Assembly (NCBI GenBank): GCA_964403755.1
Contig: CAYOHO010000001.1
Coordinates: 1-26,432, forward strand
Direction: 5' to 3'
DNA length: 26,432 nucleotides
Origin: an uncultured Oscillospiraceae bacterium
GTDB taxonomy: Bacteria > Bacillota > Clostridia > Saccharofermentanales > UBA5734
Shown: positions 1-25,599 of the stretch, piece by piece
Layout of the letters: every line of letters starts with the position of its first letter
How positions within the stretch are numbered: position 1 is the first letter of the stretch
Position numbers and translations under genes: made by a program
Notes under the pieces: generated by a model
Told to the model about the DNA's origin: nothing
Databases searched by the model: none
The model's input: the letters and a program-made list of their open reading frames with translations, nothing else

Positions 1-810
1 GTTGGCCGCCGCCGGCAGCGCCATCGTCAGAGCCGGCACTGTCAGCATCAGGCCGCGGAATCCGGCCAGCCACATCGCGAAAGTCGTGACCAGCGGGATG
101 CCGGCGAGGCGCAGGAAGGCCAGCACATAGACCCGCCTGTCGCCGATGAAGTCGCGAATCGAGATGCTGGCCGTAAGCAGGCCGACTGTCAGCATGCCGA
201 CCGGGGACAGGCAGGCAGCCAGCGAGTCGATCGTATTCTTGACCGGCGCCGGGAAGCGGATCTGGAAAACCATGACCATCACCGCCACAAGCAGGGCAAT
301 GATCGGCGGGTTGAGGAACACATCCTTCAGGGTTGGCTTCTCGCGGGCGCCCTCGCCACGCTGCATGATCACAGTGCCCAGCGAATTGAACATGAAGCGC
401 ATGACCAGGACGAACATCGTCATGTAGAACAAGCCCTTGTCGCCGTAAACGGCCGTCAGGATGCCGACGCCGACGAAGCCGAAGTTGGAGAACATCAGGG
501 AGAAATAGACAATGTTCGAGGAGGGGATCGTCATCCGGAGCAGCCGCACGATCCCGAAGGCCAGGACAAAGGCAGCGCTGACGATGATCGCGCCGGCCAC
601 AACCAGAATCGATGCCTCCTGGAGCATCTGGGCCGTAACCGGCGCCGAGAACGACTTGATGATCGATGCCGGGAAAAACACCGAGATGCAGACCCAGGAC
701 AGAAACTGGGTGACGGCCCGGCTGGAGTAGCCCAGCCTGGCAATCAGGATGCCGATCGCCATGATGATGAACAGGGGCGTGATCTGCTGGAGAACGACAA
801 AAACACTCAT
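1..810 (-). CDS. AEC (auxin efflux carrier / membrane transport) family transporter, 3' end cut by the window edge
   Basis: Not in the ORF track because it runs off the edge. Manual translation from ATG at 810 gives MSVFVVLQQITPLFIIMAIGILIARLG...FSNFGFVGVGIL...NPPIIALL...MALPAAAN, hydrophobic throughout, with the AEC-type motifs N-x-G-F-x-G, NPP and PAAAN. Confidence 0.85.
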   Translation of the reverse strand, partial: MSVFVVLQQITPLFIIMAIGILIARLGYSSRAVTQFLSWVCISVFFPASIIKSFSAPVTAQMLQEASILVVAGAIIVSAAFVLAFGIVRLLRMTIPSSNIVYFSLMFSNFGFVGVGILTAVYGDKGLFYMTMFVLVMRFMFNSLGTVIMQRGEGAREKPTLKDVFLNPPIIALLVAVMVMVFQIRFPAPVKNTIDSLAACLSPVGMLTVGLLTASISIRDFIGDRRVYVLAFLRLAGIPLVTTFAMWLAGFRGLMLTVPALTMALPAAAN

Positions 811-918: not shown

Positions 919-2352
919 TCAGTGCGGCTGAACTGTCAGCGGCACCGGGTTGCGGTAGGTCTTGCCGCCAAGGTTCTTCACATGTTCGGCCTTGGCAGCA
1001 GCCAGCAGCTCCGGGTCCTTCAGAAGATCATAGGCGGTCATGGCAATCGCCTTGGCGGCTGACAGCATGCCTTTCATGGCAACGGACGAGAGGCCGGCCG
1101 ACACCCATTGCCAGGAATGGGCAGCAGTCCCATAAGGCATGCATCCGCCGATCATCTGAACGGTCGGCGCAAACCAGCTGGGATCGCCCACATCCGTTGA
1201 TGCGGTCATCAGCTTGGGCGGGAAGGTCAGCTCCACCAGTCCTTCCTGCACGGATCGGGCGCTGAGCGCATCGATCTCCTCCGGGCTGGCGGACGGGAAA
1301 TAGCGGCGGGTCTTCTGGCGGAGCGACTTGATGACCGATTCGCTCAAGGTGCTCCGGTACTGGGCGTAGTCTTCCCGTTCCGCGTCGGAGACCTTCATCG
1401 GGTAGATCCGCTGCATGTTGGCATACATGGCGCTGGCCAGGGTCCGGTTGACGATGAAGTTCGCGCAGGCGCCATCCCACTGGATATCGACCTCGGTCTC
1501 CGTCATCATGGCAGCGCCGCAGGCGATCTTGAAGACACGCTCGTAGATCTCCTCCATCTCCTCAAGGCCGGGGGCCCGCACGAAATAGTGCAGGCGCGAC
1601 GTTGCCTGGACGACATTGGCGGCGGTTCCGCCAGCATCGAGGAAGGCATAGTGGATTCGGGCGTCGTCGATGATGTGCTCGCGGAGAAAATTGACGCCGA
1701 CATTCATCAGCTCGGCGGCATCGAGCGCACTGCGGCCCATTTCCGGCGCGCCTCCGGCATGGGCGGCCGTCCCCTTGAACGTGAAGTAGAACTGGCTGAC
1801 CGCCAGGGTTGCCTGGTCCCAGAGGCCGTTCGTATCCCAGGGGTGCCAGGTCAGGTAGGCATCCTCCCCGCCGAAGACGCCGGCGCGGGCCATGAACGCC
1901 TTGCCATAGCCGCTTTCCTCTGCCGGGCAGCCGTAAAGCCGGATCGTTCCCGGATGGCCGCTCGCCTCGAGGTACTGCTTGATCCCGATTGCGCCGGCCA
2001 CGGCGCCGATGCCCAGCAGATGGTGGCCGCAGCCATGGCCGCTGCCGCCATCGGTCAGCGGCTTCTTCTCGTGCACGCCCGCTTCCTGGCTCAGGTTGGA
2101 CAAGGCGTCGAATTCCGCCAGGATGCCGATGACCGGCTTCCCTGAGCCGTACTCGGCCAGAAACGCATGCTCCATGCCGGCCAGGCCGGTCTGAAGCCGG
2201 AAGTTCTCGCTTTCCAGCAGCGCCTTGACGTTCCGGGTCGATTCGGGCAGGTCGAAGCGCAGCTCCGGGGTGTTCCAGATCTGCCTGCTCAGGCTGATGT
2301 ACGTTTCCCGGCTGTCCTCGATGGCTTGAATGATCTGGTCCTTGACGTCCAT
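919..2352 (-). CDS. M20D family amidohydrolase, p-aminobenzoyl-glutamate hydrolase subunit B (AbgB)-like
   Basis: 477 aa. Motifs AEFDAL, GHGCGHHLLG, GCPAEESG, TWHP, AAHAGGAPEMGRSALDAAELM, STDVGD and AHSWQ. A GAAAGGA ribosome-binding site lies upstream. Confidence 0.9.
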   Translation of the reverse strand: MDVKDQIIQAIEDSRETYISLSRQIWNTPELRFDLPESTRNVKALLESENFRLQTGLAGMEHAFLAEYGSGKPVIGILAEFDALSNLSQEAGVHEKKPLTDGGSGHGCGHHLLGIGAVAGAIGIKQYLEASGHPGTIRLYGCPAEESGYGKAFMARAGVFGGEDAYLTWHPWDTNGLWDQATLAVSQFYFTFKGTAAHAGGAPEMGRSALDAAELMNVGVNFLREHIIDDARIHYAFLDAGGTAANVVQATSRLHYFVRAPGLEEMEEIYERVFKIACGAAMMTETEVDIQWDGACANFIVNRTLASAMYANMQRIYPMKVSDAEREDYAQYRSTLSESVIKSLRQKTRRYFPSASPEEIDALSARSVQEGLVELTFPPKLMTASTDVGDPSWFAPTVQMIGGCMPYGTAAHSWQWVSAGLSSVAMKGMLSAAKAIAMTAYDLLKDPELLAAAKAEHVKNLGGKTYRNPVPLTVQPH

Positions 2353-2437
2353 GGCCGAATCCTTTCCCCCTTGGGCGGTGCGATGTCCTGCCGGTCCGGC
2401 AGCGACGGCGGCGGGCGGGCTTGTCCGACAGGCGCCT

Positions 2438-3364
2438 TCAGGACGGCCTGTCTGTCTCCCCCATCCTGGTCATCAGGCTTTTCCGGTACTTGACCGGTGA
2501 CTGTCCCATTTCACGCTTGAAGCATTCCGTAAAGTAGCTGCTGCTGCCAAATCCGACCTGCTGGGCAATATCCGAGATGCACAGGTCCGTTGACGACAGA
2601 TACATGAGGCTTTGCGAGATCCGGTACTGGATCAGGTACTCGAAAGGCGTCAGGTCGAGGACACGCCGGAACAGGCGGCAGCATTCGCTGCGGCTGATAT
2701 GGATCGAATCGGCAATGTCCTTGAGTGTCAGGGGTTCGGCATGGTTCGCCTGGATGCAGCTCACCATCTTGCGGATCTTGATCCGGTTCTCAAAGGAGAT
2801 CCGGCGGCACGTCTCGATCTTCTCCCGGTTGTGCTGGATCAGCAGCTGCCACATCTGGCTGATGCAGCATTTCTGGCCCAGCTCGTAGCCGAACTCATGG
2901 CGGCGCTCCAGGGCGATGAGCTGCTCGACGAGCGCACAGAAGTCGCGGTGCCAGCCGGACGGGCCGGTCAGCGGAATGAAGGCCAGGTCAACGGAATTGA
3001 GAACCGGGTAGACATAGTCAAGATAGATGCTGCTGTCCATCTGGCCATAGATCAGGCCGGGATGGAAATTGACGCTTATGTAGACGCTGTCGGTCTGGTC
3101 CGGAAGCAGAACCGCCTCGTGCAGGCAGCAGCTGTTGATGAACAGGGCCTGTCCCTGACCGATCAGGGCCTCTGTTCCGTCGCCCCGGAACAGGACACGG
3201 CCTTTCGTGACGTAGGAAATCTGGATGCCGTCATGCCAGTGGCGGATCGCATTGATCCGGGAGTCAGCCACCTGCTGCTCGTCGAATGATAGCGGGAAGC
3301 TGTCCGTCATGTATTCGGACGGTTCCCGCTGGTTGCTGTCGATGACGATTGGCCGCAGCTTCAT
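2438..3364 (-). CDS. AraC family transcriptional regulator (N-terminal cupin plus C-terminal double HTH)
   Basis: Start placed at MKLRPIV (3364, GGAG upstream) rather than the track start at 3430. Cupin motif HWHDGIQ and AraC HTH signature LKDIA...SRSECCRLF...ISDIAQQVGFGSSSYFTECFKREMGQSPVKYRK. Confidence 0.92.
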   Translation of the reverse strand: MKLRPIVIDSNQREPSEYMTDSFPLSFDEQQVADSRINAIRHWHDGIQISYVTKGRVLFRGDGTEALIGQGQALFINSCCLHEAVLLPDQTDSVYISVNFHPGLIYGQMDSSIYLDYVYPVLNSVDLAFIPLTGPSGWHRDFCALVEQLIALERRHEFGYELGQKCCISQMWQLLIQHNREKIETCRRISFENRIKIRKMVSCIQANHAEPLTLKDIADSIHISRSECCRLFRRVLDLTPFEYLIQYRISQSLMYLSSTDLCISDIAQQVGFGSSSYFTECFKREMGQSPVKYRKSLMTRMGETDRPS

Positions 3365-3407
3365 GGCACTCCGCTCCGTTCTGGCCGGAACATCCGGCCG
3401 GTTCCGT

Positions 3408-4685
3408 TCAGAACCGCACGAGCCGGTCAAGCCGGGCCATCTGGCAGCCCGGGTTCAGGCTGTTGACCCGCATCAGGAAATTGAGCTTTTCAATGCGTTC
3501 GCCGGAGCGCGGGCAGCCGTTCTTGAGGAACGGGACGCCCAGGCCGACTGCCAGATCCATGATGATGTCGTCGATCACGCCCCCGGAGCGTCCGGAGGGC
3601 GTCGAGAGCAGGCCCTGGCTCAAGGCATAGGCATGGGCGTCCAGCGCTTCGCTGATCGTGCCGATCTGGTTCGGCTTGAGGATGAACCCGTCGATCGCGT
3701 CCAGGGCATGTGCCTTTTCCAGTCGCTCCCGGCTGGACACCGTGAGGTCGTCGCCAATCAGGAGAGTCCGGTCAAGCTGCCGGTGGGCCAGGGCAAATCC
3801 TTCCCAGTCGTTTTCATCCAGCAGGTCTTCAATGAAGACAAAGTCGAACCGCCTGGAAAGGTCGCGATAGTAGCCGATCAGCTCGGCCGTCTGCCATTGC
3901 CGGCCGTTCAGGTAGTAGGTTCCGGAGGCGGCATCGTACATGGCGCTGGCCGCGCAGTCGAGCGCAAACGAGCATTTGCCGGCGTAGCCCTTGGCAGCGA
4001 GCGCCTCGGACAGGATATCCAGGACCACCGCGGGATCCTCGGAAGGGGCGACCCAGCCATAGGAGCGGCCGACTTTGGCTTCGGAGCCGGTTCGCCGCGC
4101 GATCACCCGGCCGACCTCGGCGAAGGTCCGGACGGCGATCTCGACCGCCTCCTCAATGGCGGCGGCCCGCCAGGGCACGACGATGAACTCGTTGATTGCC
4201 TGCCTGACCGCACCGTTGCTGCCGCCGTTGATCATATTGAACGAGGGTACCGGCACCTGGCGGATCGGGCCATCCGCCAGGTATTCATAGACCGTCCGGC
4301 CGGCGCTTCTGGCAGCAGCGCGCAGGATCGCGACCGACGTGCTGTAGATCGAGTTGCCGCCAAGCCGGTGCTTGTCGGGTGTGCCATCCAGGTCGATCAT
4401 GATCTGGTCAAGCCGGCGGAAGTTGGCTGCATCCTGGCCGACGAGCTCGGGTGCTATGATCCGGTTGACGACGTCGACCGCCTTGTGCACGCCCAGGCCG
4501 TCATACTCGTCCGGATTGCCGTCGCGCAGGATGAAGGACTCATAGGCGCCGACCGATTTGCCCGTCGGTGCGCTGCCGCGCCCGAGCGAGCCGTCATCGG
4601 TAACGACGTCAACCTCGACCATCGGCCGGCAAGCCATGTCGATCAGCTGCCGGGCGGACACCTGCCTGATGATGGATGGTTTCAT
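3408..4685 (-). CDS. Enolase-family protein, a divergent phosphopyruvate hydratase paralog with altered catalytic residues
   Basis: True start is MKPSIIRQ at 4685 (GGAAGGG upstream, ATGA overlap with the kinase stop); 425 aa. It aligns over its full length with enolase: LRDG, DLDGT, NMINGG, LDCAAS, IEDL, GDDL, LKPNQIG, GRSG, LKNG. Several catalytic motifs are substituted (see findings). Confidence 0.9.
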   Translation of the reverse strand: MKPSIIRQVSARQLIDMACRPMVEVDVVTDDGSLGRGSAPTGKSVGAYESFILRDGNPDEYDGLGVHKAVDVVNRIIAPELVGQDAANFRRLDQIMIDLDGTPDKHRLGGNSIYSTSVAILRAAARSAGRTVYEYLADGPIRQVPVPSFNMINGGSNGAVRQAINEFIVVPWRAAAIEEAVEIAVRTFAEVGRVIARRTGSEAKVGRSYGWVAPSEDPAVVLDILSEALAAKGYAGKCSFALDCAASAMYDAASGTYYLNGRQWQTAELIGYYRDLSRRFDFVFIEDLLDENDWEGFALAHRQLDRTLLIGDDLTVSSRERLEKAHALDAIDGFILKPNQIGTISEALDAHAYALSQGLLSTPSGRSGGVIDDIIMDLAVGLGVPFLKNGCPRSGERIEKLNFLMRVNSLNPGCQMARLDRLVRF

Positions 4686-6115
4686 GCCCTTCCTCCAGTC
4701 TCCGCTGCCGGCACATACAGGACGTTGAAGTCGCAGAGGTTCGTGCCGGTATTGCCGGTCAGGATTGTATCGCCGAGGGCGTCGAGGGACTCGAAGCAGG
4801 CATGCCCGCGCAGTCCGGCGCGCAGGTCGATGCCGCTTCCGGAGGCCCGGCGTGCGGTCTGTGAATCCGTGATGCCGCCGGCAACCGACGTGGTGCCGTC
4901 CGTGCCTTCGGAATCGATTGAAAGCAGGCAGGCGCCAGGCACACTGCCGGCGGTGAGCGCAAAGCTGGCAACCATCTCCTGTCCGGGCCCGCCATGTCCG
5001 GCAATCTGCTGATTGTCCAGGATGGTCGTCACAGCCTCGCCGGAGCTCAGCACCAGGCACGGCGCGGAGACCGGATTGCCGTAGGTCTGGATCTCCCGCG
5101 CCAGCGCAGCCATCACCGTGCCGATATCCTTGGCTTCACCGTCCAGGAACGAGCTGAGGATGACGGCCGGGATGCCCATCTCGCCGGCGATCTCCCTGGC
5201 GTAGCGGCAGGAGTCCGGCACGGTGTTGATCAGGTAATAGGTGTTGTCCGGGAAGGCCTTGGGCGTCTCACCCTCCGGGCCGGCGTTCATCAGGTAGTCG
5301 ACGACGGAACGGGGAAGGCGGTCCTCCACCTGGTATTCCCGGATGACGCGGCGGGCATCCTCGAGGGTCGTCTGGTCGGGCCCCATCGGCGTCGCGCGGT
5401 ATCTGGCGTAAGGGACACTGATATCGCCGGTCGGCGGCGAGGCAATCGCATCGCTGATGCCGAATCCGATCAGGGTGCCGCCGCGGCGCTGGATCCGCCT
5501 GGCCAGCATGCCCCCGTTCATCTGCGAGATATGGCGCCGGATGGCATTGATTTCAAAGATGTTGGCTCCGGACTTCAGCATGACATCGGTCGTGTCGATC
5601 TCGTCCTGCAGGGTGATGCCATCGATTGGCAGGCTCATCAGGGCCGAGCTGCCGCCGCTCATCACGACCAGGAACAGGTCATCCGGCCCGCTGGCGTCAA
5701 CGATATCGAGGATTTCCCGGCACGCCTTCATGCCGGTCTCGTTCGGCAAGGGGTGGCCGCCGACAAACACCCGCGTCTTGCGGAAGACATCCGCAGGCTC
5801 GGCAATCTTGACGATTGCGATGCCATCGGTCAGCCAGTCGCCCAGGATCTCGTCAATAGCCATTGCCATCGCATTGCAGGCCTTGCCGGCGCCGATCAGG
5901 TAGACATGGCGCCTGGCCGCCAGATCCCAGCTCCGGTCGCCGATGCGCAGGATCTGGCCGTCCCGGTGAACGATCTGCCGGATCCGCGCGTAGGCATTCA
6001 GGCGGACGAGCGTCCGCTCCACAAGGTCCAGCACGATGCGTCGGGATTCCGTATCCCCATGAGCCGTCAGGCGCTCCCGGTTCTTGATGATTGCAGCCAC
6101 GATATCCTCCCGCAT
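4682..6115 (-). CDS. MOFRL/DUF4147 family kinase (glycerate 2-kinase / TtuD-like), divergent
   Basis: Start placed at MREDIV (6115); 477 aa. Motifs IGAGKA, GGHPLP, SGGSSAL, GANIFEIN, SGEA, GTDG and TGNTGTNLCD match the glycerate-2-kinase fold. Confidence 0.88.
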   Translation of the reverse strand: MREDIVAAIIKNRERLTAHGDTESRRIVLDLVERTLVRLNAYARIRQIVHRDGQILRIGDRSWDLAARRHVYLIGAGKACNAMAMAIDEILGDWLTDGIAIVKIAEPADVFRKTRVFVGGHPLPNETGMKACREILDIVDASGPDDLFLVVMSGGSSALMSLPIDGITLQDEIDTTDVMLKSGANIFEINAIRRHISQMNGGMLARRIQRRGGTLIGFGISDAIASPPTGDISVPYARYRATPMGPDQTTLEDARRVIREYQVEDRLPRSVVDYLMNAGPEGETPKAFPDNTYYLINTVPDSCRYAREIAGEMGIPAVILSSFLDGEAKDIGTVMAALAREIQTYGNPVSAPCLVLSSGEAVTTILDNQQIAGHGGPGQEMVASFALTAGSVPGACLLSIDSEGTDGTTSVAGGITDSQTARRASGSGIDLRAGLRGHACFESLDALGDTILTGNTGTNLCDFNVLYVPAAETGGRA

Positions 6116-6211
6116 CTGCCTTTTCCCTGCCGGAACGGAGTCCGTCTGACAGGCAGGGCTGGCTGATCTGCGCAATATTGCCAGCTCCGGGCCGACAAGC
6201 CCTTCCTTATG

Positions 6212-6240
6212 AAACTAGAAAAGATCAGATGATTTGTCAA
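6212..6240 (-). promoter_or_regulatory. sigma70/sigmaA promoter for the kinase-enolase-araC transcript (TTGACA-17 nt-TAGTTT)
   Basis: The minus strand has a perfect -35 TTGACA (6240-6235), an exact 17-nt spacer and a -10 TAGTTT (6217-6212). Predicted +1 is near 6205, about 90 nt upstream of the kinase ATG. Confidence 0.7.
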
Positions 6241-6370
6241 TCCGTCGTGTGAAATTGTTGATTGGATCAAAATGGTTTCGTTGTATCCGCTTCTTGATTG
6301 TGCAAGTCGACGTGACCAGACGACTTTCGCGTATAAATCCGATCAGCCGGCGCACTTCAGCCATGGTCGT

Positions 6371-6404
6371 CAATATTGTTATAAAATGATGGAAGATTGC
6401 GATA
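6371..6404 (+). promoter_or_regulatory. Candidate operator (imperfect direct repeat at 21-bp spacing) overlapping a possible extended -10 for the rightward operon
   Basis: caatattgttata (6371-6383) and gaagattgcgata (6392-6404) match at 9 of 13 positions. TGtTATAAA lies at 6377-6385 with no consensus -35. Confidence 0.35.
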
Positions 6405-6476
6405 TCTCAGTTTCCCGTTTTCACTTATTTTGATTGTAGAAATATCGTCACCCGTTCAGCAATGTAGGGCACCACC

Positions 6477-7796
6477 ATGAGCCTCACAAGCCTGACTCCG
6501 ACGATTCAGTCATTGGCCTCCGATTTCCTGCCTGACACCATTGACTTCTGCCAGCGCCTCATCCGCAGACCTTCCTTGCCCGGATCCGAAAAGGATGTCG
6601 CCGACGCCTATCTGGCCGAGATGGAAAAGCTTGGCTATGATGAGGTCTTCCGCGATGCCTGGGGCAATGTCATCGGCCTCGTCCGCGGCACCGAGCCCGG
6701 CCCGACGATCATGTACAACGCGCATCTCGACCATGTCGACCCGGGCGACCTGTCTGCCTGGGAAGGCTACGATCCCTACGGCGCAGCCATCGACGAGGCG
6801 GAGATGGAAAACCAGGACCGCGACGCGCTGGAGCGGACCCGTGTGATCCACGGCCGCGCCGCCGCCGACACCAAGGCCGGCGGCGCCTGCCAGGTGTACA
6901 GCGGCGCCATGCTGCTCCGCATGCGGGCCCAGGGCATCCCGATCCGTGGCAACTATCTGTTCACGGCGGTGGTCCTGGAGGAGCCAGCCGAGCAGCTCGG
7001 CATGATCAAGCTGATTGACGAGACGCTCCCGGCCCGGGGCATCGGCTTCGACGGCGTCGTGTCCTGCGAGGCGACCGGCCTGAAGCTCTATCTCGGCCAC
7101 CGCGGGCGCGTGGAAATCAAGGTGACGACCCACGGCCTGTCTTCACACAGCAGTTCACCCTGGCTTGGCATCAACGCCGTCAACAAGGCGACCCGCTTCA
7201 TTGACCGGATCGAGGAAGTGGTCGCCCGGCAGGCGCGCGTCGACGCCGATGTCGGCCGGTCCAGCATCGCCCTGAAGTACATCGACTGCGAGCCGGGCTC
7301 GATGAGCATCGTTCCCGACCGCTGCAACATGATCTATGACCGTCGCTTCATACCCGGCGAGACGGCCGACGACTGCATCAGCCAGATCCAGGAGCTGATC
7401 GGCACCCTGGAGGCCGGCGATCCCCAGTTCAAGGCGACGGTCGCGGTCGCTGCCGAAACGCGCACGTCTTATACCGGACTGTCCCAGAAGGTTGCGAATG
7501 TCAAGCAGGCCTGGAAGATCAGCCCGGAAAATGTCTTTGTCTCACGGGCCGCAGATGCGCTGCAGGCACTCGGCCAGCCGGTCAAGTACGGCTACTGGGA
7601 TTTCGGGACCGACCTGGCTGTTGTCTGCGGCCGGGATGGGAAGCCTGCCATCGGCTATTCGCCGATGCAGGAGTTCTATTGTCACCGGCCGGTCGACAAG
7701 GTGCGGATCGACTACATGGAAAAGGCTCTGGCAGGCTATGCCATGATCCATTTCCATCTCGCCGGTCTCGCGCAGGACGATTTCCAGCTTTCCTGA
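6477..7796 (+). CDS. M20 family metallo-amidohydrolase, YgeY-like
   Basis: 439 aa. Metal-site motifs AHLDHV, GRAAADTK, LEEP, CEAT and CHRP. RGRVEIKVTTHGLSSHSSSP and DRRFIPGET resemble the YgeY/ArgE dimerisation domain, and EMEKLGYDEVFRDAWGNVIG resembles the YgeY N-terminus. Confidence 0.8.
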   Translation: MSLTSLTPTIQSLASDFLPDTIDFCQRLIRRPSLPGSEKDVADAYLAEMEKLGYDEVFRDAWGNVIGLVRGTEPGPTIMYNAHLDHVDPGDLSAWEGYDPYGAAIDEAEMENQDRDALERTRVIHGRAAADTKAGGACQVYSGAMLLRMRAQGIPIRGNYLFTAVVLEEPAEQLGMIKLIDETLPARGIGFDGVVSCEATGLKLYLGHRGRVEIKVTTHGLSSHSSSPWLGINAVNKATRFIDRIEEVVARQARVDADVGRSSIALKYIDCEPGSMSIVPDRCNMIYDRRFIPGETADDCISQIQELIGTLEAGDPQFKATVAVAAETRTSYTGLSQKVANVKQAWKISPENVFVSRAADALQALGQPVKYGYWDFGTDLAVVCGRDGKPAIGYSPMQEFYCHRPVDKVRIDYMEKALAGYAMIHFHLAGLAQDDFQLS

Positions 7797-7977
7797 CTGA
7801 AGCCGGCAGCGCTGATCCGGCAAAGGCGACGGACAGCATGCGGAACGGACAGAAAGGCGGCTGATCGGGCCGGCGTCCGGCACAGGCCGGCAGCCGGCCG
7901 CAGCAAGGAAGCATGGCGAAAGGGGCGATGCAAGGATTCACTGAATCATGCCAAAGCGTTGAAAAGGAGAAGGCTGC

Positions 7978-9102
7978 ATGGATACCAGAATTGAATTCCT
8001 GTACTTGTCCGAGCCGGACACGATTGCCGCCGGCGTAAACGACCGGGCCGCCTGTGTCGATGTCTGCCAGGAAGTGTTCGCGCTTCTGGCCAAAGGCGAC
8101 TACCTGATGGGCGGACCGACACACAACAGCCATGGCATGGGGATCATCTTCCCCAGGCAGACACCCTTCCCGAACATGCCGGTCGCCGGTCCGGACCGCC
8201 GCTTCTTTGCCATGCCGGCATACCTGGGCGGCCGCTTCGACTGCTGCGGCAACAAGTGGTACGGCTCCAACGCCGCCAACAAGGAGAAGGGACTGCCGCG
8301 TTCAATCCTGACGGTCATGCTGAACGACAAGGACACCGGTGCACCCTTTTGCCTCATGTCAGCAAACCTGCTCAGTGCTGCCCGAACCGGAGCCGTCCCG
8401 GGTGTCGGAACCCGACATCTGGCACGCAAGGATGCAGCCGTCCTTTCCCTGATCGGCTGCGGACCGATCAACCAGGCCTGCATGGACCATATCCTGACGC
8501 AGGCTGCCGGCATCAGGAAGGTTATCTGCCATGCCATTCACCAGTCATCGATGGAGCGCATGGCCGCCTATGTGCGGGAAAAGTACCAGATCGAGGCCGA
8601 GGCAAATGCCGACCTCGAGTCAGCTGTCCGGGAATCCGACATCGTTTCGGTCGCGGCTTCCCGGGTGAAGCCGCTGAAGCTCGAGCATGCCTGGCTGAAG
8701 AAGGGCGCCCTGGTCCTGCTGTCAGGGCCCTCGCAGGGCGACGACGACTTCTGGCTGAAGAGCACGGTCGTCTACGACCACATCGGCCTTCACGAGGCCT
8801 ATGTCAGCGAGGCGATCGAGTCGGGCGACCGGGAAGGCTACTATCGCGGCGTCATCGGCGGGCCGATCTATGCCATGATCGATCAGGGCCGGCTGCCCGC
8901 TCTGCAGGACAGCCGCAGCAAGAGCATCGGCCAGATCATCCTTGGCGAGCAGGCAGGCCGCCAGTCGGATGATGAAACCATCATTTTCGTAGCCTGCGGC
9001 ATGGCGGTGTTCGATGTCGGCTGGGGCTACACCGTCTATCAGAACGCGCTGCGCAAGGGCATCGGCCAGAAGCTGCTGCTCTGGGACAAGCCAGCCCTCT
9101 AG
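7978..9102 (+). CDS. Ornithine cyclodeaminase / mu-crystallin family protein, similar to the subgroup annotated 'tyramine oxidase subunit B' (TynB)
   Basis: 374 aa with an AAGGAG ribosome-binding site. FLYLSEPD, DRRFFAMPAYLGG, KWYGSNAANKEKGLPRS, MSANLLSAARTGAVPGVG, Rossmann GCGPIN and C-terminal GMAVFDVGWG are all typical of this subgroup. Confidence 0.85.
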   Translation: MDTRIEFLYLSEPDTIAAGVNDRAACVDVCQEVFALLAKGDYLMGGPTHNSHGMGIIFPRQTPFPNMPVAGPDRRFFAMPAYLGGRFDCCGNKWYGSNAANKEKGLPRSILTVMLNDKDTGAPFCLMSANLLSAARTGAVPGVGTRHLARKDAAVLSLIGCGPINQACMDHILTQAAGIRKVICHAIHQSSMERMAAYVREKYQIEAEANADLESAVRESDIVSVAASRVKPLKLEHAWLKKGALVLLSGPSQGDDDFWLKSTVVYDHIGLHEAYVSEAIESGDREGYYRGVIGGPIYAMIDQGRLPALQDSRSKSIGQIILGEQAGRQSDDETIIFVACGMAVFDVGWGYTVYQNALRKGIGQKLLLWDKPAL

Positions 9103-9217
9103 CCTGAGTCCAGCCGAATCCGTCTGCATCTGTCCGGAGGCGCCTGTCGGCCGCCATGCCGGAAAAGCCATTCAACAGGCACCGCTCAAGAATCAACACT
9201 CGAGAAGGAGTAACAAG

Positions 9218-10090
9218 ATGGCTGTAAAGATCGAAGAAAAAGAGATGGACGAGAAGATCAGTTCTGACTATAGTTTTGTCAGGGACTGGAAATTCCACCT
9301 GATCATCCTGATCGCCTGCATGATTTCCGACAAGATCGGCGCGATCGTCATCCCGGTCTGGGGATCGGTTCGGGTCACGCTGCTTCCGCTGCTGTATTCG
9401 ATGGCCATTGTCACGGCCCTCTACCTGTTCAAGCCCTTCAAGTGGGTCGGCACCAAGAACAACGCTGCCGGCGCCCTGATGATGGGCCTCTCGACGATCC
9501 TGCTGATGGCCAAGCTGGGCTTCACCGTCGGCGCCAACCTGAAGGTCATCTGGGAATCCAGCATTCCGCTGCTGTTCTCAAACCTGGCTGACTCCATGAC
9601 CTGCATCCTGGCCCTGCCGCTGGCCCTGGCGCTGGGCCTGAAGCGGGAGTCGATCGGCCTGACGTTCGCCAACTCCCGCGAGGCGGGCATTGCGATCATC
9701 GAGAACCGCTATGGCGACGGCGCCGAGCTGCGTGGCGTCATCGGCATGTACATCACCGGCACCGTCTTCGGCACGATCACCGTCGGCATCCTGTCCAGCG
9801 TCTTCACGACGACCGGCCTGTTCAGCCTCGAAGCCGTCGCCATGGCAGCCGGCATCGGCTCCGCATCCATGTCCACCGCCGCCATCGGCACGATGGTCTC
9901 GATGTTCCCGGCAATCGAGCAGAAGATCTCCGCCTTTGTCATCGCCTCCAACCTGATCTCCAGCGTCCTTGCCATCTATGTCGGCCTGTTCATCAACCTG
10001 CCGATCACGGAATGGATGTACAAGCGGCTTTCGCCGCTCCTTGGCAAGAAGGCGAAGGCTTCAACAGCACCGGCTAAGGCTGAAGGATAA
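9218..10090 (+). CDS. DUF3100 family membrane protein, large subunit of a putative two-subunit secondary transporter
   Basis: Start placed at MAVKIEE (9218, GAAGGAG upstream); 290 aa, polytopic. Motifs DWKFH, LLPLLY, LGLKRESIG, SRE, RGVIGMYITGTVFG and AMAAGIGSAS. Confidence 0.72.
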   Translation: MAVKIEEKEMDEKISSDYSFVRDWKFHLIILIACMISDKIGAIVIPVWGSVRVTLLPLLYSMAIVTALYLFKPFKWVGTKNNAAGALMMGLSTILLMAKLGFTVGANLKVIWESSIPLLFSNLADSMTCILALPLALALGLKRESIGLTFANSREAGIAIIENRYGDGAELRGVIGMYITGTVFGTITVGILSSVFTTTGLFSLEAVAMAAGIGSASMSTAAIGTMVSMFPAIEQKISAFVIASNLISSVLAIYVGLFINLPITEWMYKRLSPLLGKKAKASTAPAKAEG

Positions 10091-10103
10091 GGAGTGCGGA
10101 AAA

Positions 10104-10565
10104 ATGAGTGTAAAGGCGTTTGCAAAAAATGAAATCCGGGACTGGTTCGCCGGTCTGGCCATCCTGGCCATGATGGGATGCGTCGGCAACTACGTTGGCT
10201 ACAAGGTGCCGATCCTCGACTCGCTTCCGGGCATGCTCATCCTGTTCGTGATCTCGATCGCCGGCCTGTTCGTCACCAAGCTCATTCCCGGCAAAATGCC
10301 GGCCATGCTGTATGTCTCCGTAGTCGCGATCCTTGTGTCGATGCCCTATACGCCCATCGCGGCCATCCTGACGCCCTACGTCAACAAGATCAACCTGATG
10401 GCGATCGTCACGCCGATCCTCGCCTATGCCGGCGTCATTGTCGGCCGTGACTGGGATGCCTTCCGCAAGCTCAGCTGGAAGGCAGTTGTCGTCGGCATCG
10501 TGGTCATCTTCGGCGCCTTCTTCTGGGGCGCGCTGATCGCCGAAGTGCTCATCAAGGTCACCTGA
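10104..10565 (+). CDS. Small membrane protein, probable partner subunit of the DUF3100 protein
   Basis: Start placed at MSVKAF (10104, AAGGAG upstream); 153 aa with about 5 hydrophobic segments. Motif TPILAYAG...D...F.KLSWK.VVV is typical of DUF3100-adjacent proteins. Confidence 0.72.
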   Translation: MSVKAFAKNEIRDWFAGLAILAMMGCVGNYVGYKVPILDSLPGMLILFVISIAGLFVTKLIPGKMPAMLYVSVVAILVSMPYTPIAAILTPYVNKINLMAIVTPILAYAGVIVGRDWDAFRKLSWKAVVVGIVVIFGAFFWGALIAEVLIKVT

Positions 10566-10579
10566 AGGAGGAATCCCGG

Positions 10580-11677
10580 ATGGACAACGGACTATTCCCC
10601 ATTGCCGACGTGGCCGGGACACCCCGTGAAATCGGCCTGCAGCATGGCAGCCTGTTCACAAGGCAGATCGGGAACAGCATCCGGTGCTACCGCGACATCT
10701 TCCATGACTACGCCGGTCTGGAGTGGGAGCGGGCCAAGAAGCTTTCCCGGCGCTACATCGACATCATCGGCGACTACAATCCGGACTACCTGGAGGAGAT
10801 CCGGGGTGTCGCCGAGGGCGCCCGGATGGATTTCGAAGACATCCTGGCACTCAATTCCCGCAGCGAGCTGATGTTTGCCGGCAATCTGCTGGAGCCGCTG
10901 GAAGGCGGATGCACGTCGATCGGCATCACGGCCGAGGCCAGTGCGAACGGCGATGCGATCATTTCCCATAACTGGGACTGGAAGGCGGTCCAGCGGCAGG
11001 CGATGGTCCGGATGCGGATCACGCAGAAGAACGGCCGGCCATCCATGCTGCTGGTCACCGAGGCCGGCATCATCGGCAAGACCGGCTACAACGCCGCCGG
11101 CATCGCGCTGTTCCTGAACGCCTTGTCGACGGATGCGGCCCCGGAAGGCCTGCCGCTGCACATCGCGATGCGCGGGATCCTCGACAGCGAGTCCCTCGTC
11201 CAGGCCCTGCGGGCAGCGACCCGCATGAAGCTGGGCTGCTGCGCGAACTTCCTGATCGGCGCCCGCAATGGCGAGATCGTCGACATCGAGATCGAGAACG
11301 AGGACTTCGATGTCCTCTATCCGGAGAACGGGATCATCGTGCACACCAACCATTTCATCAGCCCGCGCCTGCCGCGCAGCCCGCGGACCGACACCATGAA
11401 ATACAAGGTGCCGGACACGTTTATCCGCCTGTGCCGGGCCAGAAAGCTGCTGGCCGGACAGGCCGGCCGGGTCACGCCGGAGTTCGTGCGCGGCGTGCTG
11501 CAGGACCATGTGGAGGCGCCCAACTGCATCTGCCGCCACGACGATCCGGCCCAGCCGGAAGGCCTGCGCATGTGCTCGGTGTTCTCCATGCAGGTCAACC
11601 TGACCCGCGGCGAGGTGCTGTTCGCAAAAGGCAACCCCTGTGAAACACCCTATGAACCCGTGGCACTGAACTTCTGA
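10580..11677 (+). CDS. C45 family peptidase (autoproteolytic Ntn-hydrolase / acyltransferase, IAT/Tan-like)
   Basis: 365 aa with an AGGAGG ribosome-binding site. G-T-P-x-E-I-G-x-Q-H-G near the N-terminus, EEIRGVAEGA, LALNSRSE, cleavage-site GG/CTS, HNWDW and HTNHF. Confidence 0.9.
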   Translation: MDNGLFPIADVAGTPREIGLQHGSLFTRQIGNSIRCYRDIFHDYAGLEWERAKKLSRRYIDIIGDYNPDYLEEIRGVAEGARMDFEDILALNSRSELMFAGNLLEPLEGGCTSIGITAEASANGDAIISHNWDWKAVQRQAMVRMRITQKNGRPSMLLVTEAGIIGKTGYNAAGIALFLNALSTDAAPEGLPLHIAMRGILDSESLVQALRAATRMKLGCCANFLIGARNGEIVDIEIENEDFDVLYPENGIIVHTNHFISPRLPRSPRTDTMKYKVPDTFIRLCRARKLLAGQAGRVTPEFVRGVLQDHVEAPNCICRHDDPAQPEGLRMCSVFSMQVNLTRGEVLFAKGNPCETPYEPVALNF

Positions 11678-11691
11678 ATCACGGAACGGCG

Positions 11692-11720
11692 GCGGCCGGG
11701 GCATCTGAAGCCCCGGCCGC
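11692..11720. other. Intercistronic stem-loop (11-bp perfect stem, 7-nt loop, no U-tract)
   Basis: gcggccggggc-atctgaa-gccccggccgc, between the C45 stop and the ArgE-like start. Confidence 0.6.
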
Positions 11721-11783
11721 TGTCCTGCCAGGCCAGCCTTCCGGGCTGTGCCTGATCATGATCATCCGCAAGGGAGTCACCGT

Positions 11784-12974
11784 ATGTTTGAAGATGAAGT
11801 CCTGCAACTGACATCCCAGCTCGTCGCGATTGAAAGCACCAACAAGGGCACTTTTGAGGGGGCGGTCGGCCAGTTCATCCAGGACTGGCTCAAGGCCAGC
11901 ACCCACGCCGAAATCAGCACCCAGGAGTTCCTGCCCGGACGCTTCAACGTGCTGGCGACCTATAAGGGGAAGGTGTCGCACCCCAACCTGCTGTATGTCT
12001 GCCACATGGATACGGTCCCGATCGGTGATGGCTGGACGGTCGATCCGTTCCGGACCACCATCCGCGACGGCCGCATGTACGGCCGCGGCACCAACGACAT
12101 GAAGTCCGGCATGGCGGCAGCCATGATCGCGTTCCGCGATATCACCAACGAATTCCATGCCAAGGGCATCATTCCGAAGTACGATTTCATCTTCATCGCC
12201 TCCGGCGACGAGGAAGACGTGATGGTCGGCGCCGACCGGCTCTGCACCAGCGGCGTCGCAACCCGCGACAGCCTGGTGCTCGACATGGAGCCGTCGTTGA
12301 TGTTCAGCGGCAAGGGGATCGAAGACCGCACGGTGGCCATGTTCGGCCACAAGGGCAAGACCTGGTTCGAGATCACGACCGAGGGCAAGACCGCCCATGG
12401 CAGCCTTCCCTACCTCGGCATCGATGCCGTTGCCGCCATGGCCGAGATCATCAGCGAGATCCGCCGTGCGATCGCCCAGTATCCGGAAGATCCGGTGATG
12501 GGCCGGCCGACCGTCTGCTTCGGCCGGATCCAGGGTGGTGTCAACACCAACATGGTTCCGGAAAAGTGCTCGCTCTGGATCGACATGCGGCTGGCACCGC
12601 CGCTGAGCGTCGAATCCTCCAAGCAGCTGGTCGCTGACGCCATCGCCACCGGGATCGCTCGCGTGCCCGGCAGCAGCGGCCATTACAGCTGCTTTGCCGA
12701 GCGCCCCTTCGTGCTGATCAACGAGGACTCCGTGCTGCTGGCGGAGCTGGACAAGGCCTCGCGCCAGGTCTTCGGCAAGCCGTGCAAGGCTGCGGTCTTC
12801 ACCGGCTACACCGACAGCGGCGTCATCGCCGGCAACTGCGGCAACGGCGAATGCATGTCGTTCGGCCCTTCCGGCGACCACTGCCACCAGCCGGACGAGT
12901 ATGTCGACTGCCAGAGCGTCCTCAACTGTCTCGAGGTCTACCGGATCGTCGCCCGCAGCATCCTGGCCGACTAG
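11784..12974 (+). CDS. M20A family metallopeptidase/deacylase, ArgE/DapE-like
   Basis: Start placed at MFEDEV (11784, AAGGGAG upstream); 396 aa. Motifs CHMDTVP, YGRGTNDMKSG, GDEED, MEPS, GKTAHGS, GGVNTNMVP, YTD and CHQPDEYV. Confidence 0.9.
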   Translation: MFEDEVLQLTSQLVAIESTNKGTFEGAVGQFIQDWLKASTHAEISTQEFLPGRFNVLATYKGKVSHPNLLYVCHMDTVPIGDGWTVDPFRTTIRDGRMYGRGTNDMKSGMAAAMIAFRDITNEFHAKGIIPKYDFIFIASGDEEDVMVGADRLCTSGVATRDSLVLDMEPSLMFSGKGIEDRTVAMFGHKGKTWFEITTEGKTAHGSLPYLGIDAVAAMAEIISEIRRAIAQYPEDPVMGRPTVCFGRIQGGVNTNMVPEKCSLWIDMRLAPPLSVESSKQLVADAIATGIARVPGSSGHYSCFAERPFVLINEDSVLLAELDKASRQVFGKPCKAAVFTGYTDSGVIAGNCGNGECMSFGPSGDHCHQPDEYVDCQSVLNCLEVYRIVARSILAD

Positions 12975-13021
12975 CGGCAGGTTCTGCCGAATCCGGCCGC
13001 CGGCCTTCCTTCTAAAAGTCC

Positions 13022-13060
13022 GAAAAGGGCTGCCCCATGATTGACGGGGCAGCCCTTTTC
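13022..13060. terminator. Bidirectional intrinsic terminator between the two convergent blocks
   Basis: Perfect 15-bp inverted repeat gaaaagggctgcccc / ggggcagcccttttc with a 9-nt loop, giving a 4-U tract on each strand. Confidence 0.85.
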
Positions 13061-13106
13061 AGCATCTGATGGAAAGCAGCCGGCCGGAATCGGCGGCCTC
13101 CTGGAC

Positions 13107-14552: not shown

Positions 14553-14625
14553 GGTGGCTTTCTCCTTAGCATGGGCCGGTCGGTGTCAGCGGGCGCCGGC
14601 CGGGCGGTTTTACGGGCGATCGGTT

Positions 14626-15786: not shown

Positions 15787-15789
15787 GGC

Positions 15790-19368: not shown

Positions 19369-19401
19369 ATGTGCGCTCCTGACTGCCTGCGGCCGGCCGC
19401 T

Positions 19402-20244: not shown

Positions 20245-20266
20245 GGTCGTCCTCCTCATGGATGGG

Positions 20267-20301
20267 CGGCCGCCGGGCAGGGAACGCCGGCCCGGCGGCC
20301 G
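20267..20301. other. Intercistronic stem-loop (12-bp perfect stem) between the BMP gene and udp
   Basis: cggccgccgggc (20267-20278) and gcccggcggccg (20290-20301), with an 11-nt loop. Confidence 0.6.
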
Positions 20302-20334
20302 TCTCTTGTTATGCGTTGTGGTTCGGGGCAGGCT

Positions 20335-20379
20335 GCCATGAAGCTTTGCTTCAGGCCGCCATGAAGCTTCGCTTCAGGC
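20335..20379. repeat. Tandem 22-bp direct repeat (period 23), each copy a small hairpin
   Basis: gccatgaagctttgcttcaggc (20335-20356) and gccatgaagcttcgcttcaggc (20358-20379) differ at one base. Each has the core TGAAGC-TTY-GCTTCA. Confidence 0.9.
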
Positions 20380-20384
20380 GGGGA

Positions 20385-23282: not shown

Positions 23283-23293
23283 GGATGCTCCTT

Positions 23294-24148: not shown

Positions 24149-24175
24149 CCTGTCTCCTCCCATCACCCTGGACGG

Positions 24176-25498: not shown

Positions 25499-25599
25499 CT
25501 GGATTCCTCCATGCGGTCGGATGGATGCGGGGCTGGTTCAGGTCGGGCCGGGTTTCCGGTGGGCGGACGCCGTCTGCGTGCGTCCGGCGGGATCATGCC

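Follow-up and report, generated by a model that had tools for sequence, protein, structure and literature searches.

An OCD-like, kinase and enolase-like gene trio with exchangeable amide-hydrolase front ends: a possible route from a C3 amino acid to phosphoenolpyruvate

Introduction

What catabolic task would bring four amide hydrolases, a putative permease, an enzyme of the OCD/mu-crystallin family, a kinase and a relative of enolase together around a single control region? The question is raised by a stretch of 26,432 nucleotides from an uncultured Oscillospiraceae bacterium (GenBank assembly GCA_964403755.1, contig CAYOHO010000001.1, positions 1 to 26,432), referred to throughout as the window, in which ten genes lie in two divergent operons between positions 919 and 12974. 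A previous interpretation made from the letters alone (the sequence-only reading) saw here a locus marked by its four hydrolases. We find that the part of the locus that recurs across phyla is instead a trio of OCD-like, kinase and enolase-like genes, and we are rather confident of the overall picture, namely a fixed trio joined to exchangeable amide-hydrolase and transporter front ends and including an enolase relative that is not canonical. The locus probably converts a small, nitrogen-rich C3 acid to phosphoenolpyruvate (PEP), and what is new would be a probable new enzyme activity inside an otherwise familiar type of catabolic operon.

Results

Ten genes in two divergent operons

Gene families were called with Pfam and NCBIfam profile searches, with equivalog scores read against the curated cutoffs. 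The leftward operon encodes, in order, a DUF4147+MOFRL kinase, an enolase-like protein, an AraC-family regulator and an M20 amidohydrolase of the TIGR01891 type. The rightward operon encodes a YgeY-like M20 hydrolase, the OCD-like enzyme, a DUF3100 protein, a small membrane protein, a C45 hydrolase and an ArgE/DapE-like M20 hydrolase. The features are as follows.

919..2352, minus strand: M20 amidohydrolase, TIGR01891 (AbgB/HipO/ILR1) type, 477 amino acids; last gene of the leftward operon
2438..3364, minus strand: AraC-family regulator, 308 amino acids (Pfam HTH_18, HTH_AraC, AraC_binding)
3408..4685, minus strand: enolase-subgroup paralogue, 425 amino acids (Pfam Enolase_N and Enolase_C)
4682..6115, minus strand: DUF4147+MOFRL kinase, 477 amino acids (Pfam); first gene of the leftward operon
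6116..6476, no strand: AT-rich divergent control region (from GC content and alignment to the spacer of the related locus L102)
6477..7796, plus strand: YgeY-related M20 hydrolase, 439 amino acids; first gene of the rightward operon
7978..9102, plus strand: OCD/mu-crystallin-family NAD(P) enzyme of the NF004848 group, 374 amino acids (NCBIfam)
9218..10090, plus strand: DUF3100 integral membrane protein, 290 amino acids (Pfam DUF3100, 222 bits)
10104..10565, plus strand: small membrane protein, 153 amino acids, partner of DUF3100 by conserved adjacency
10580..11677, plus strand: C45 Ntn-hydrolase/acyltransferase proenzyme, 365 amino acids (NF040521)
11748..12974, plus strand: M20 ArgE/DapE-like deacylase, 408 amino acids from a GTG start or 396 from the ATG at 11784; last gene of the rightward operon
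1-810, minus strand: AEC/Mem_trans gene (Pfam), cut by the window edge

All the families named in the sequence-only reading were recovered by Pfam and NCBIfam where it had placed them. The single AT-rich divergent control region that it described was likewise confirmed: the spacer between the operons measures 361 bp and has a GC content of 47%, against 64% for the 26.4-kb window. The regulator combines an N-terminal cupin/AraC_binding sensor domain with a C-terminal double helix-turn-helix (PF12833, PF00165, PF02311); its start was set at the ATG that matches its orthologues (MKLRPIV), and no NCBIfam equivalog matched it. Scans of the window for consensus promoters and terminators gave nothing above the shuffled expectation and nothing significant in the spacer, so the operon limits are based on spacing and synteny. 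Rfam searches of the window and its intergenic regions found no riboswitch or other RNA.

The conserved unit is a trio

To place these genes in a wider context, one genome per species was scanned with the OCD-like protein as anchor. The best 80 of the 257 matches were kept and neighbours were counted within 10 kb of the anchor, with open reading frames in the related loci called mechanically and neighbour clusters labelled from representatives. The 80 loci, which are phylogenetically non-independent and among which horizontal transfer is evident, carry OCD-like proteins 58-71% identical to that of the window and are spread over Bacillota, Synergistota, Chloroflexota, Acidobacteriota (Holophagae), Planctomycetota, Spirochaetota, Actinomycetota and Pseudomonadota (Alpha- and Betaproteobacteria and Erwinia). 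Faecalicatena, Wukongibacter baidiensis and Brucella anthropi (pOANT01) are among the cultured carriers.

An enolase-like gene lies near the anchor in 67 of the 80 loci, and the kinase gene in 67 by tblastn or 63 by clustering of open reading frames. The other genes of the window are far rarer: the YgeY-like M20 gene was found in 12-13 loci, the ArgE-like M20 gene in 6-7, the DUF3100 pair in 3, the C45 gene in 2 and the TIGR01891-type M20 gene in none. Because the trio is near-universal and the hydrolases are sporadic, we take the trio to be the conserved entity and the hydrolases to be accessory to it. The four hydrolases therefore lose their place as the hallmark of the locus, and the kinase and enolase-like genes, previously regarded as a pair, are indeed present and linked but belong with the OCD gene.

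Exceptions to the linkage are few. Among the 48 loci with full flanks, 3 have neither the kinase nor the enolase-like gene. In L002, L004 and L084/L085, an AraC gene is divergent from an OCD-like gene followed by a glutamate dehydrogenase (GDH)-like gene and an Fe-alcohol dehydrogenase gene, with no kinase or enolase-like gene within 10 kb; these genomes have either a split trio or a second setting for the OCD-like enzyme.

Within the trio, the kinase and enolase-like genes are the more intimately joined. The kinase stop and the enolase-like start overlap as ATGA at 4682-4685, implying translational coupling, and in L045, L051 and L079 the two are fused into single proteins of 895-983 amino acids with the architecture DUF4147+MOFRL+Enolase_N+Enolase_C. 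The locus with the nearest OCD relative (L081, 73% identity) is minimal: AraC, kinase and enolase-like genes run leftward, divergent from the OCD-like gene and the TRAP genes dctM, dctP and dctQ. Outside L102, the architecture nearest to that of the window is found in an Anaerolineaceae locus (L095), where AraC, kinase, enolase-like and M20 genes are divergent from an OCD-like gene and a further M20 gene, with a C45 gene adjoining. Full-text literature searches returned no description of the trio, nor of a pathway with the gene set of the window, in line with the earlier claim that none had been described; most subscription journals lie outside the coverage of these searches and prior work is possible.

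The enolase-like subfamily lacks the general acid of enolase

The enolase-like protein has the two-domain fold of enolase (EC 4.2.1.11; PF03952, 134 bits; PF00113, 187 bits) and is about 40% identical to archaeal and eukaryotic enolases, as read off the alignments. Its active site was examined by alignment to the M. jannaschii and T. brucei enolases and in a table of 65 subfamily members, using yeast numbering. In yeast enolase, D246, E295 and D320 are the Mg ligands, K345 is the catalytic base, and K396, R374, E168 and S39 contact the substrate and the second metal. The window protein and all 65 members retain the Mg ligands and K345, and K396, R374, E168 and S39 are conserved in the subfamily as well.

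The differences from enolase lie elsewhere in the site. Glu211 serves as general acid, donating a proton to the leaving 3-OH, and its loss lowers enolase activity by orders of magnitude; H373 contacts the 3-OH and H159 the phosphate. Glu211 is replaced in every one of the 65 members, in 64 of them by Ser, and the adjacent G212 is Tyr in 64. All 65 have Gly for H373 and Asn for Q167, and H159 has become Tyr or Asn (Asn in the window protein). In terms of motifs, GDEGG, SHRSGETED and GGKHAG read GRSYG, SGRSGGVID and GGSNGA in the window, the second having the general form SGRSGGV(I/V)x in the subfamily. A further difference from enolase is that the enolase-like gene is always linked, and sometimes fused, to the MOFRL kinase gene, with the OCD-like gene in company.

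Having lost Glu211, His373 and His159, the subfamily is, to judge from its residues, not a canonical enolase, and we propose that the protein is a lyase which carries out a beta-elimination on some 2-phospho acid that is not 2-phosphoglycerate. The earlier suggestion that a hydroxy-acid backbone enters metabolism at PEP must be qualified on this point, for without Glu211 and His373 a conversion of 2-phosphoglycerate to PEP is not to be assumed. The protein scores 336.5 bits against TIGR01060, whose cutoff is 300, so annotation pipelines will call it enolase; in public records, including RefSeq plasmids, its orthologues do carry the label 'enolase' or 'enolase C-terminal domain-like protein'.

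The OCD-like enzyme and the kinase

The OCD-like enzyme falls squarely in NF004848 (464 bits against a cutoff of 362; PF02423, 192 bits), and thousands of homologues are more than 60% identical to it. The database name of this group is 'tyramine oxidase subunit B', for which literature searches found nothing behind the name. The protein scores below the equivalog cutoffs for SbnB, OCD and archaeal alanine dehydrogenase (TIGR03944, 172 against 327 bits; NF005762, 68 against 350; TIGR02371, 118 against 409) and below those for BhcD and P2C reductase. Its best sequence match in the PDB is SbnB (4m54, E 8e-32, about 26% identity). Foldseek searches with an AlphaFold2 model (predicted local distance difference test score, pLDDT, 81) placed SbnB, archaeal alanine dehydrogenase and P2C reductase at the top and CmnK further down, with template-modelling scores of about 0.75-0.85 for SbnB, CmnK and the archaeal alanine dehydrogenase AF1665. 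SbnB is an N-(2-amino-2-carboxyethyl)-L-glutamate dehydrogenase, and SbnB and CmnK form L-2,3-diaminopropionate. The window enzyme shares the Rossmann OCD fold with these proteins, its closest solved relatives in both sequence and predicted fold, but carries about 40 extra residues, and its gene context is catabolic and not one of siderophore or antibiotic biosynthesis as for SbnB and CmnK. Residues 43-78 (LMGG..HNSHG..FPNMPVAGPDRRF) are near-invariant across phyla and absent from other OCD-family proteins; modelled at pLDDT below 50, they may form a lid or a protein-protein interface.

The kinase has the DUF4147 (PF13660, 189 bits) and MOFRL (PF05161, 78 bits) domains of the class II glycerate 2-kinases (TM1585, PH0495 and T. 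tenax GK), and its best PDB matches are PH0495 (E 1e-67, full-length) and TM1585. It nonetheless scores far below the glycerate 2-kinase equivalogs (NF041176, 157 against 550 bits; NF040791, 122 against 670), and it differs from those kinases in belonging to a tight group of its own, 64-76% identical across phyla and bound to the variant enolase. We propose that it acts on a 2-hydroxy acid.

Hydrolases and the DUF3100 permease

The metal and nucleophile motifs that the sequence-only reading had called intact are so. All three M20 proteins have the Pfam Peptidase_M20 and dimerisation domains. The TIGR01891-type copy, with GCGHH and PAEES motifs, is the sole one to pass its subfamily cutoff (228 bits against 154) and is a lineage-specific accessory hydrolase; in the two DapE-type copies the HxD, D-x-K and EE motifs can be read intact. 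The YgeY-like copy is 30% identical to Escherichia coli YgeY over 96% of its length and scores 275 bits against a cutoff of 321 for NF009555 and 219 against 321.5 for TIGR03526. For comparison, a YgeY assignment in recent work used 53% identity (bioRxiv 10.1101/2025.04.24.650524), and the window protein is a YgeY-related paralogue and not YgeY itself. Orthologues 55-59% identical to it stand beside the trio in L011, L013, L014, L016, L017, L045 and L079, and we propose that it is an N-carbamoyl (ureido) or N-acyl amino-acid amidohydrolase that would release a free amino acid. The ArgE/DapE-like copy (TIGR01910, 211 bits against a cutoff of 218; HMD, NDMK and DEE motifs) has orthologues 46-57% identical in L001, L011, L027, L028, L039, L041, L079 and L088.

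The C45 protein scores 255 bits against NF040521 (cutoff 85). Its GGC110TS segment (Gly109-Cys110) aligns to DGC103TT of P. chrysogenum IAT (2x1d), and Cys110 is the predicted nucleophile and self-cleavage site. C45 genes adjoin the trio in L001/L095 and L028, and in L088 one accompanies an ArgE-like M20 gene, a TRAP system and a LarA gene. As the C45 homologues of Ruminococcus sp. OA3 and GCA_003464085, two of three whose contexts were examined, are in settings unrelated to the trio, C45 is not a reliable marker of it.

A gene for a small membrane protein always follows the DUF3100 gene, as seen in L027, L028, L041 and L102 and in the marine loci L089-L094. This 153-residue partner, which matches no Pfam family, is 48-57% identical in L027, L028 and L041 and 37-39% in the marine loci, and DUF3100 is predicted to be the large subunit of a two-part permease formed with it. 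A metagenome scan with DUF3100 found only six distant loci (32-34% identity), all marine. In these marine relatives (32% identical), an M20 hydrolase gene comes next after the permease pair; since DUF3100, partner and M20 stay together even there, permease and M20 form a module.

A related contig conserves the whole locus

All ten genes recur in L102, a metagenomic contig from a related organism, with order and orientation kept and at 71-95% amino-acid identity (TIGR01891-type M20 83%, AraC 71%, small membrane protein 90%). The ten-gene set is thus more than a chance collection, given this synteny and the subsets found in other phyla; co-occurrence elsewhere had been named beforehand as a test of the grouping, and the outcome that would have spoken against it did not arise. 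An exact look-up of the OCD-like protein of the window did not find it on any other contig. On the far side of the TIGR01891-type M20 gene, L102 has MobB and low-GC restriction-modification genes and no AEC gene, so the conserved unit stops at 919 and the AEC carrier is only adjacent to it. That carrier is present at the left end of the window, as had been noted, without being part of the unit. On the L102 contig (12000-21434), the locus, at 56-61% GC, abuts a block of 35-39% GC that encodes DNA methylases, an HNH nuclease and a BpuJI-like protein; the step in GC marks the boundary of the locus, with flanks that are mobile or foreign.

The two spacers have diverged overall, and several blocks, at 6170-6181, 6230-6242, 6366-6408 and 6416-6445, have nevertheless been kept in the spacer alignment. 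They include the palindrome GCGCAATATTGC at 6170-6181, TGATTTGTCAATC at 6230-6242, which is duplicated in L102, and GTCAATATTGTTATAAAAT...ATTGCGATAT. These conserved blocks are candidate AraC operators and promoters.

Neighbours of the trio and the link to anaerobic urate catabolism

Within the 80 loci, the commonest neighbours after the trio genes are TRAP transporters (31 loci), GntR regulators (29), LarA-type nickel racemases of 2-hydroxy acids (28), GDH-like genes (26) and RpiR-SIS regulators (25); AraC regulators, 36-48% identical to that of the window, are found in 16. Na:alanine symporters, NCS1 nucleobase/hydantoin permeases, polar amino-acid ABC transporters and AEC carriers are rarer. 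At least 20 loci carry an amide, ureide or lactam hydrolase, whether M20 (two types), C45, dihydropyrimidinase/HyuA-like or ATP-dependent HyuA/HyuB, and in Enterocloster a PF04199 cyclase/formamidase and an Amidohydro_3 enzyme adjoin the DUF3100 pair.

In the reductive urate pathway, the ring is reduced by UacX (DHO_dh family) or YgfK and opened by SsnA and HyuA, YgeW or UacY (Amidohydro_3) removes one ureido group, the M20 enzyme YgeY strips the other to free 2,3-diaminopropionate, and the pyridoxal phosphate (PLP)-dependent lyase YgeX takes this to pyruvate (PMC12507026; bioRxiv 10.1101/2025.04.24.650524). No OCD, enolase or glycerate-kinase homologue is mentioned in either source. Several trio loci carry genes of this kind within the trio's own operons. 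In L012, L014, L053 and L098/L099, NCS1 permease, PreT-like, PreA/UacX-like and HyuA-like genes stand beside the kinase and enolase-like genes, divergent from an OCD gene followed by a YgeY-like gene. In L030, the OCD gene is followed by UacX-like and, further on, SsnA-like, HyuA-like and YgeY-like genes, with kinase, enolase-like and GDH genes running away on the other side. In these loci the trio holds the position of the terminal enzyme, which in L030 is the place of YgeX.

The locus of the window resembles the reductive (2,8-dioxopurine/yanthine) urate cluster of E. coli and Clostridia in having a YgeY-type M20 hydrolase, which in that cluster frees a C3 diamino acid on its way to the level of pyruvate or PEP, and in the UacX/PreA-, SsnA- and HyuA-like genes of its relatives L012, L014, L030, L053 and L098. 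It differs in that the window has no XdhD, reductase, SsnA, HyuA, YgeW/UacY or YgeX, and in that the trio replaces, or joins, the terminal PLP lyase. As its defining features are absent, the locus does not belong to that kind of cluster. Hydantoin and dihydropyrimidine clusters are alike in that a transporter and M20 carbamoylase-type hydrolases deliver a free amino acid, and relatives of the locus have their NCS1 permease and cyclic amidohydrolase; the window, in contrast, has no ring-opening enzyme and has a DUF3100-pair transporter, four hydrolases of three families and a product that would pass to the trio.

Two further arrangements may be recorded. In L057, L068 and L071 (about 9980-13413), tandem OCD-like genes are followed by a gene for a DpaL-like PLP enzyme, and an AEC-family carrier, an aldehyde dehydrogenase and a GntR regulator stand beside the enolase-like and kinase genes; the tandem variant may separate D- and L-substrates. 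DpaL-like genes accompany the trio in four loci, these three and an Agrobacterium. The Brucella anthropi plasmid pOANT01 (L104, 114.5-136 kb) carries genes for HyuA, HyuB, a TIM-barrel isomerase, a polar amino-acid ABC transporter, an SDR protein, an IlvD-type dehydratase and a GntR regulator, and then for the kinase, the enolase-like and OCD-like proteins, a cupin, a GDH-like protein, a 4-OT-type tautomerase and pyruvate carboxylase, the last a hint that pyruvate or PEP is the end product.

Right flank of the window

Convergent with the ArgE-like gene, the minus strand at 13107-21551 carries genes for an SSADH-like aldehyde dehydrogenase, a phosphopentomutase, a BMP-family ABC transporter (two permeases, ATPase and binding protein) and a uridine-phosphorylase-like protein, which together would make up a nucleoside-uptake and cleavage module. 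Aldehyde dehydrogenase genes are found near the trio in 7 of the 80 loci and also downstream of DUF3100 and M20 in marine loci. Further right (22488-26361, minus strand) lie two SDR oxidoreductase genes, a TRZ/ATZ-family amidohydrolase gene and a cut Fe-alcohol dehydrogenase gene. SsnA and dihydropyrimidinase were considered for the 440-residue amidohydrolase and rejected; it is TRZ/ATZ-type, deaminase-like and below all equivalog cutoffs.

Discussion

The gene architecture of the locus and the changes in its enolase-like active site can be read directly, and from them and the neighbours of the trio we infer a substrate and an order of reactions. We suspect that a small C3 amino acid enters through the DUF3100 permease as its N-carbamoyl and/or N-acyl derivatives, which could be ureido-diaminopropionates from neighbouring purine degraders or diaminopropionate conjugates derived from plants or peptides. 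The M20 and C45 hydrolases would strip the N2 and N3 substituents, and the freed acid would most likely be 2,3-diaminopropionate, the product of the YgeY reaction, with isoserine as the alternative. The OCD-like enzyme may then oxidise the C2 amine to an imine, which on hydrolysis would give the 2-oxo acid, to be reduced in turn to the 2-hydroxy acid isoserine, with LarA setting the C2 configuration in those loci that have it. Phosphorylation of O2 by the kinase would give 2-phospho-isoserine, from which the enolase-like protein might produce PEP and ammonium, Lys345 taking the C2 proton and the protonated 3-ammonium being expelled. A 3-ammonium leaving group needs no acid catalyst, which would explain why Glu211 and His373 are dispensable.

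Several observations are consistent with such a scheme. The ATGA coupling and natural fusion of kinase and lyase fit consecutive steps, and the frequency of LarA-type racemases fits a 2-hydroxy-acid intermediate. The TRAP, Na:alanine, polar amino-acid ABC and NCS1 transporters beside the trio would suit a small polar acid or amino acid. The nearest solved relative of the OCD-like enzyme, SbnB, forms diaminopropionate and CmnK is also among its structural matches, which points to a C3 diamino acid. The hydrolases in 20 of the 80 loci, the urate-type gene sets, the DpaL-like genes in four loci and the constant DUF3100, partner and M20 module likewise point to amide or ureide feeders and such an acid. 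The outline given by the sequence-only reading (import of conjugates, removal of N-substituents, redox chemistry by the OCD-like enzyme and entry of a C3 backbone into PEP) fits these findings, its chemistry still being conjectural. Its deprotection stage has gained support now that YgeY is known as a ureido-diaminopropionate amidohydrolase (PMC12507026).

By analogy, the locus would operate as a cluster for hydantoin or ureide use does, with the addition of a kinase/lyase pair that follows the logic of the glycerate-to-PEP route with altered chemistry. The model as a whole, an AraC-controlled two-operon catabolic locus with a trio core and lineage-specific plug-ins that brings a C3 amino acid to PEP, stands in our judgement a little short of an even chance. 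The particular route from diaminopropionate through isoserine to PEP is possible and, on balance, doubtful. Its strongest form is more doubtful than likely: an undescribed and widely transferred trio pathway to PEP from diaminopropionate or isoserine freed from ureido and N-acyl conjugates, for instance intermediates of anaerobic purine breakdown, in which the 'enolase' is a 2-phospho-isoserine ammonia-lyase and the OCD-like enzyme exchanges an amino group for a hydroxyl.

A number of points weigh against this scheme. Each of its chemical steps, and the substrate of each of the eleven proteins, is deduced. The YgeY-like protein is below both NCBIfam cutoffs and only 30% identical to its E. coli namesake, and a tblastn search of the window with the E. 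coli urate-cluster proteins gave matches to YgeY-like sequence only, without XdhD, SsnA, HyuA, YgeW or DpaL. We know of no OCD-family enzyme that swaps an amino group for a hydroxyl. The presence of DpaL-like genes with the trio in four loci argues against the trio as a simple replacement for DpaL, and a three-step route that is ATP-neutral (net) has no obvious advantage over a one-step PLP lyase. The GDH-like genes in 26 of the 80 loci are left unexplained by the model beyond ammonium handling, and the sets of NCS1, PreT/PreA, dihydropyrimidinase and carbamoylase genes resemble uracil and thymine degradation, which leads to beta-alanine. Lastly, the TRAP binding proteins of trio loci are closest to 4p47, 7bbr, 4nq8, 4pdd and 4p9k, deposited only as TRAP DctP subunits or periplasmic binding proteins, which are probable binders of sugar acids, pantoate and erythronate.

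Sugar acids are at the centre of one other explanation, in which the trio would serve an imported hydroxy- or sugar-acid of four or more carbons, polyhydroxy or amino-hydroxy: LarA would set C2, the kinase would phosphorylate O2, and the enolase-like protein would dehydrate the product with Tyr212 as acid, giving a phosphoenol-2-keto-3-deoxy acid and yielding ATP, with the OCD-like enzyme as an alanine-dehydrogenase-type reductive aminase or deaminase on the 2-oxo acid and the hydrolases only freeing the acid from conjugates. The LarA-like (28 of 80) and RpiR-SIS (25 of 80) neighbours would suit it, as would these matches of the TRAP binding proteins, the IlvD-type dehydratase and the sugar-phosphate isomerase TIM protein of the Brucella anthropi plasmid locus, the wider pocket near C3 that H373G and E211S would create beside a Tyr at 212 in 64 of 65 members, and the archaeal alanine dehydrogenase, which stands as near to the OCD-like enzyme as SbnB does. 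We consider it unlikely, for it leaves unexplained why amine-releasing hydrolases of amides, ureides or lactams make up nearly all the variable partners, and why Na:alanine and polar amino-acid transporters are among the neighbours, and the minimal locus L081 contains no enzyme using a 2-oxo acid except the OCD-like one. The closeness to SbnB could also be taken at face value: the OCD-like enzyme would then oxidatively cleave, or build and cleave, an N-(carboxyalkyl)-L-glutamate to 2-oxoglutarate or glutamate, a linked GDH would recycle these, and the kinase and enolase-like protein would process the hydroxy-acid half, possibly with glutamate as leaving group. SbnB is indeed the best match by sequence and fold, and an enlarged enolase-like pocket could fit a bulky amine leaving group. 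GDH-like genes with the glutamate-type GPxKGG motif occur in the 26 loci and in the same operon in Erwinia, Rhizobium and Brucella, and the copies in rhizobia and Agrobacterium are plasmid-borne, in company with polar amino-acid (opine-type) ABC transporters and an oxoprolinase-like HyuAB that could open opine lactams. This opine-like route is quite unlikely in our view: most carriers of the trio are anaerobes of guts or digesters, for which no source of opines is known, the score against the SbnB equivalog lies far under its cutoff (172 against 327 bits), GDH is absent from the window, L102 and L081, and no candidate compound is known.

The feeder genes, for their part, could be degrading uracil or thymine, with the trio as a new means of disposing of beta-alanine or 3-aminoisobutyrate. 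L012, L014, L053 and L098/L099 hold the classical set (NCS1, PreT-/PreA-like, dihydropyrimidinase-like and M20 carbamoylase) in one operon pair with the trio, and uridine-phosphorylase-like, phosphopentomutase and BMP nucleoside ABC genes flank the locus of the window, with a PNP_UDP_1 gene near L098. Beta-alanine, however, has neither O nor N at C2 and would leave a glycerate-2-kinase homologue and an enolase-type mechanism, with its alpha proton and beta leaving group, without a target, the window has no reductase or ring-opening enzyme, and DHO_dh-type reductases also reduce the urate-derived ring, as UacX does (PMC12507026); we regard pyrimidine disposal as very unlikely. Most improbable of all these readings is ordinary serine/glycerate entry, with a plain glycerate 2-kinase, a spare functional enolase and hydrolases that are unrelated or a chance neighbourhood of peptidases. 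The TIGR01060 score above cutoff (336.5 against 300 bits), the 'enolase' label of the orthologues and the true glycerate 2-kinases within the MOFRL family would all be accommodated. The replacement of Glu211 in 65 of 65 members, together with that of His373 and His159, is not; nor are a kinase far under the glycerate 2-kinase cutoffs, a trio linkage kept across phyla and a full hydrolase set kept in L102.

If the proposed route from a C3 diamino acid to PEP is correct, the enolase-like protein would give the enolase subgroup its first member that catalyses another reaction, and the OCD-like enzyme would carry out a redox-neutral exchange of an amino group for a hydroxyl unseen in its family. 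To our knowledge the enolase subgroup is treated as single-function. A clade from many phyla that scores above the enolase cutoff and has no acid catalyst is likely to represent both a new activity and a systematic mis-annotation as 'enolase' or 'phosphopyruvate hydratase'. The analysis also provides a testable functional context for three large families known so far by placeholder names, namely the NF004848 group, the DUF4147 proteins and the DUF3100 permeases, and the locus illustrates how interchangeable front ends of transporters and hydrolases can be added to a fixed catabolic core. Lachnospiraceae, Oscillospiraceae and Synergistaceae of the gut often carry the trio, and some genomes connect it with genes for ring reduction and ring opening from anaerobic urate and pyrimidine pathways described only in 2025. 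It may thus be a missing or alternative terminal branch of purine disposal in the gut, a possibility that bears on hyperuricaemia research.

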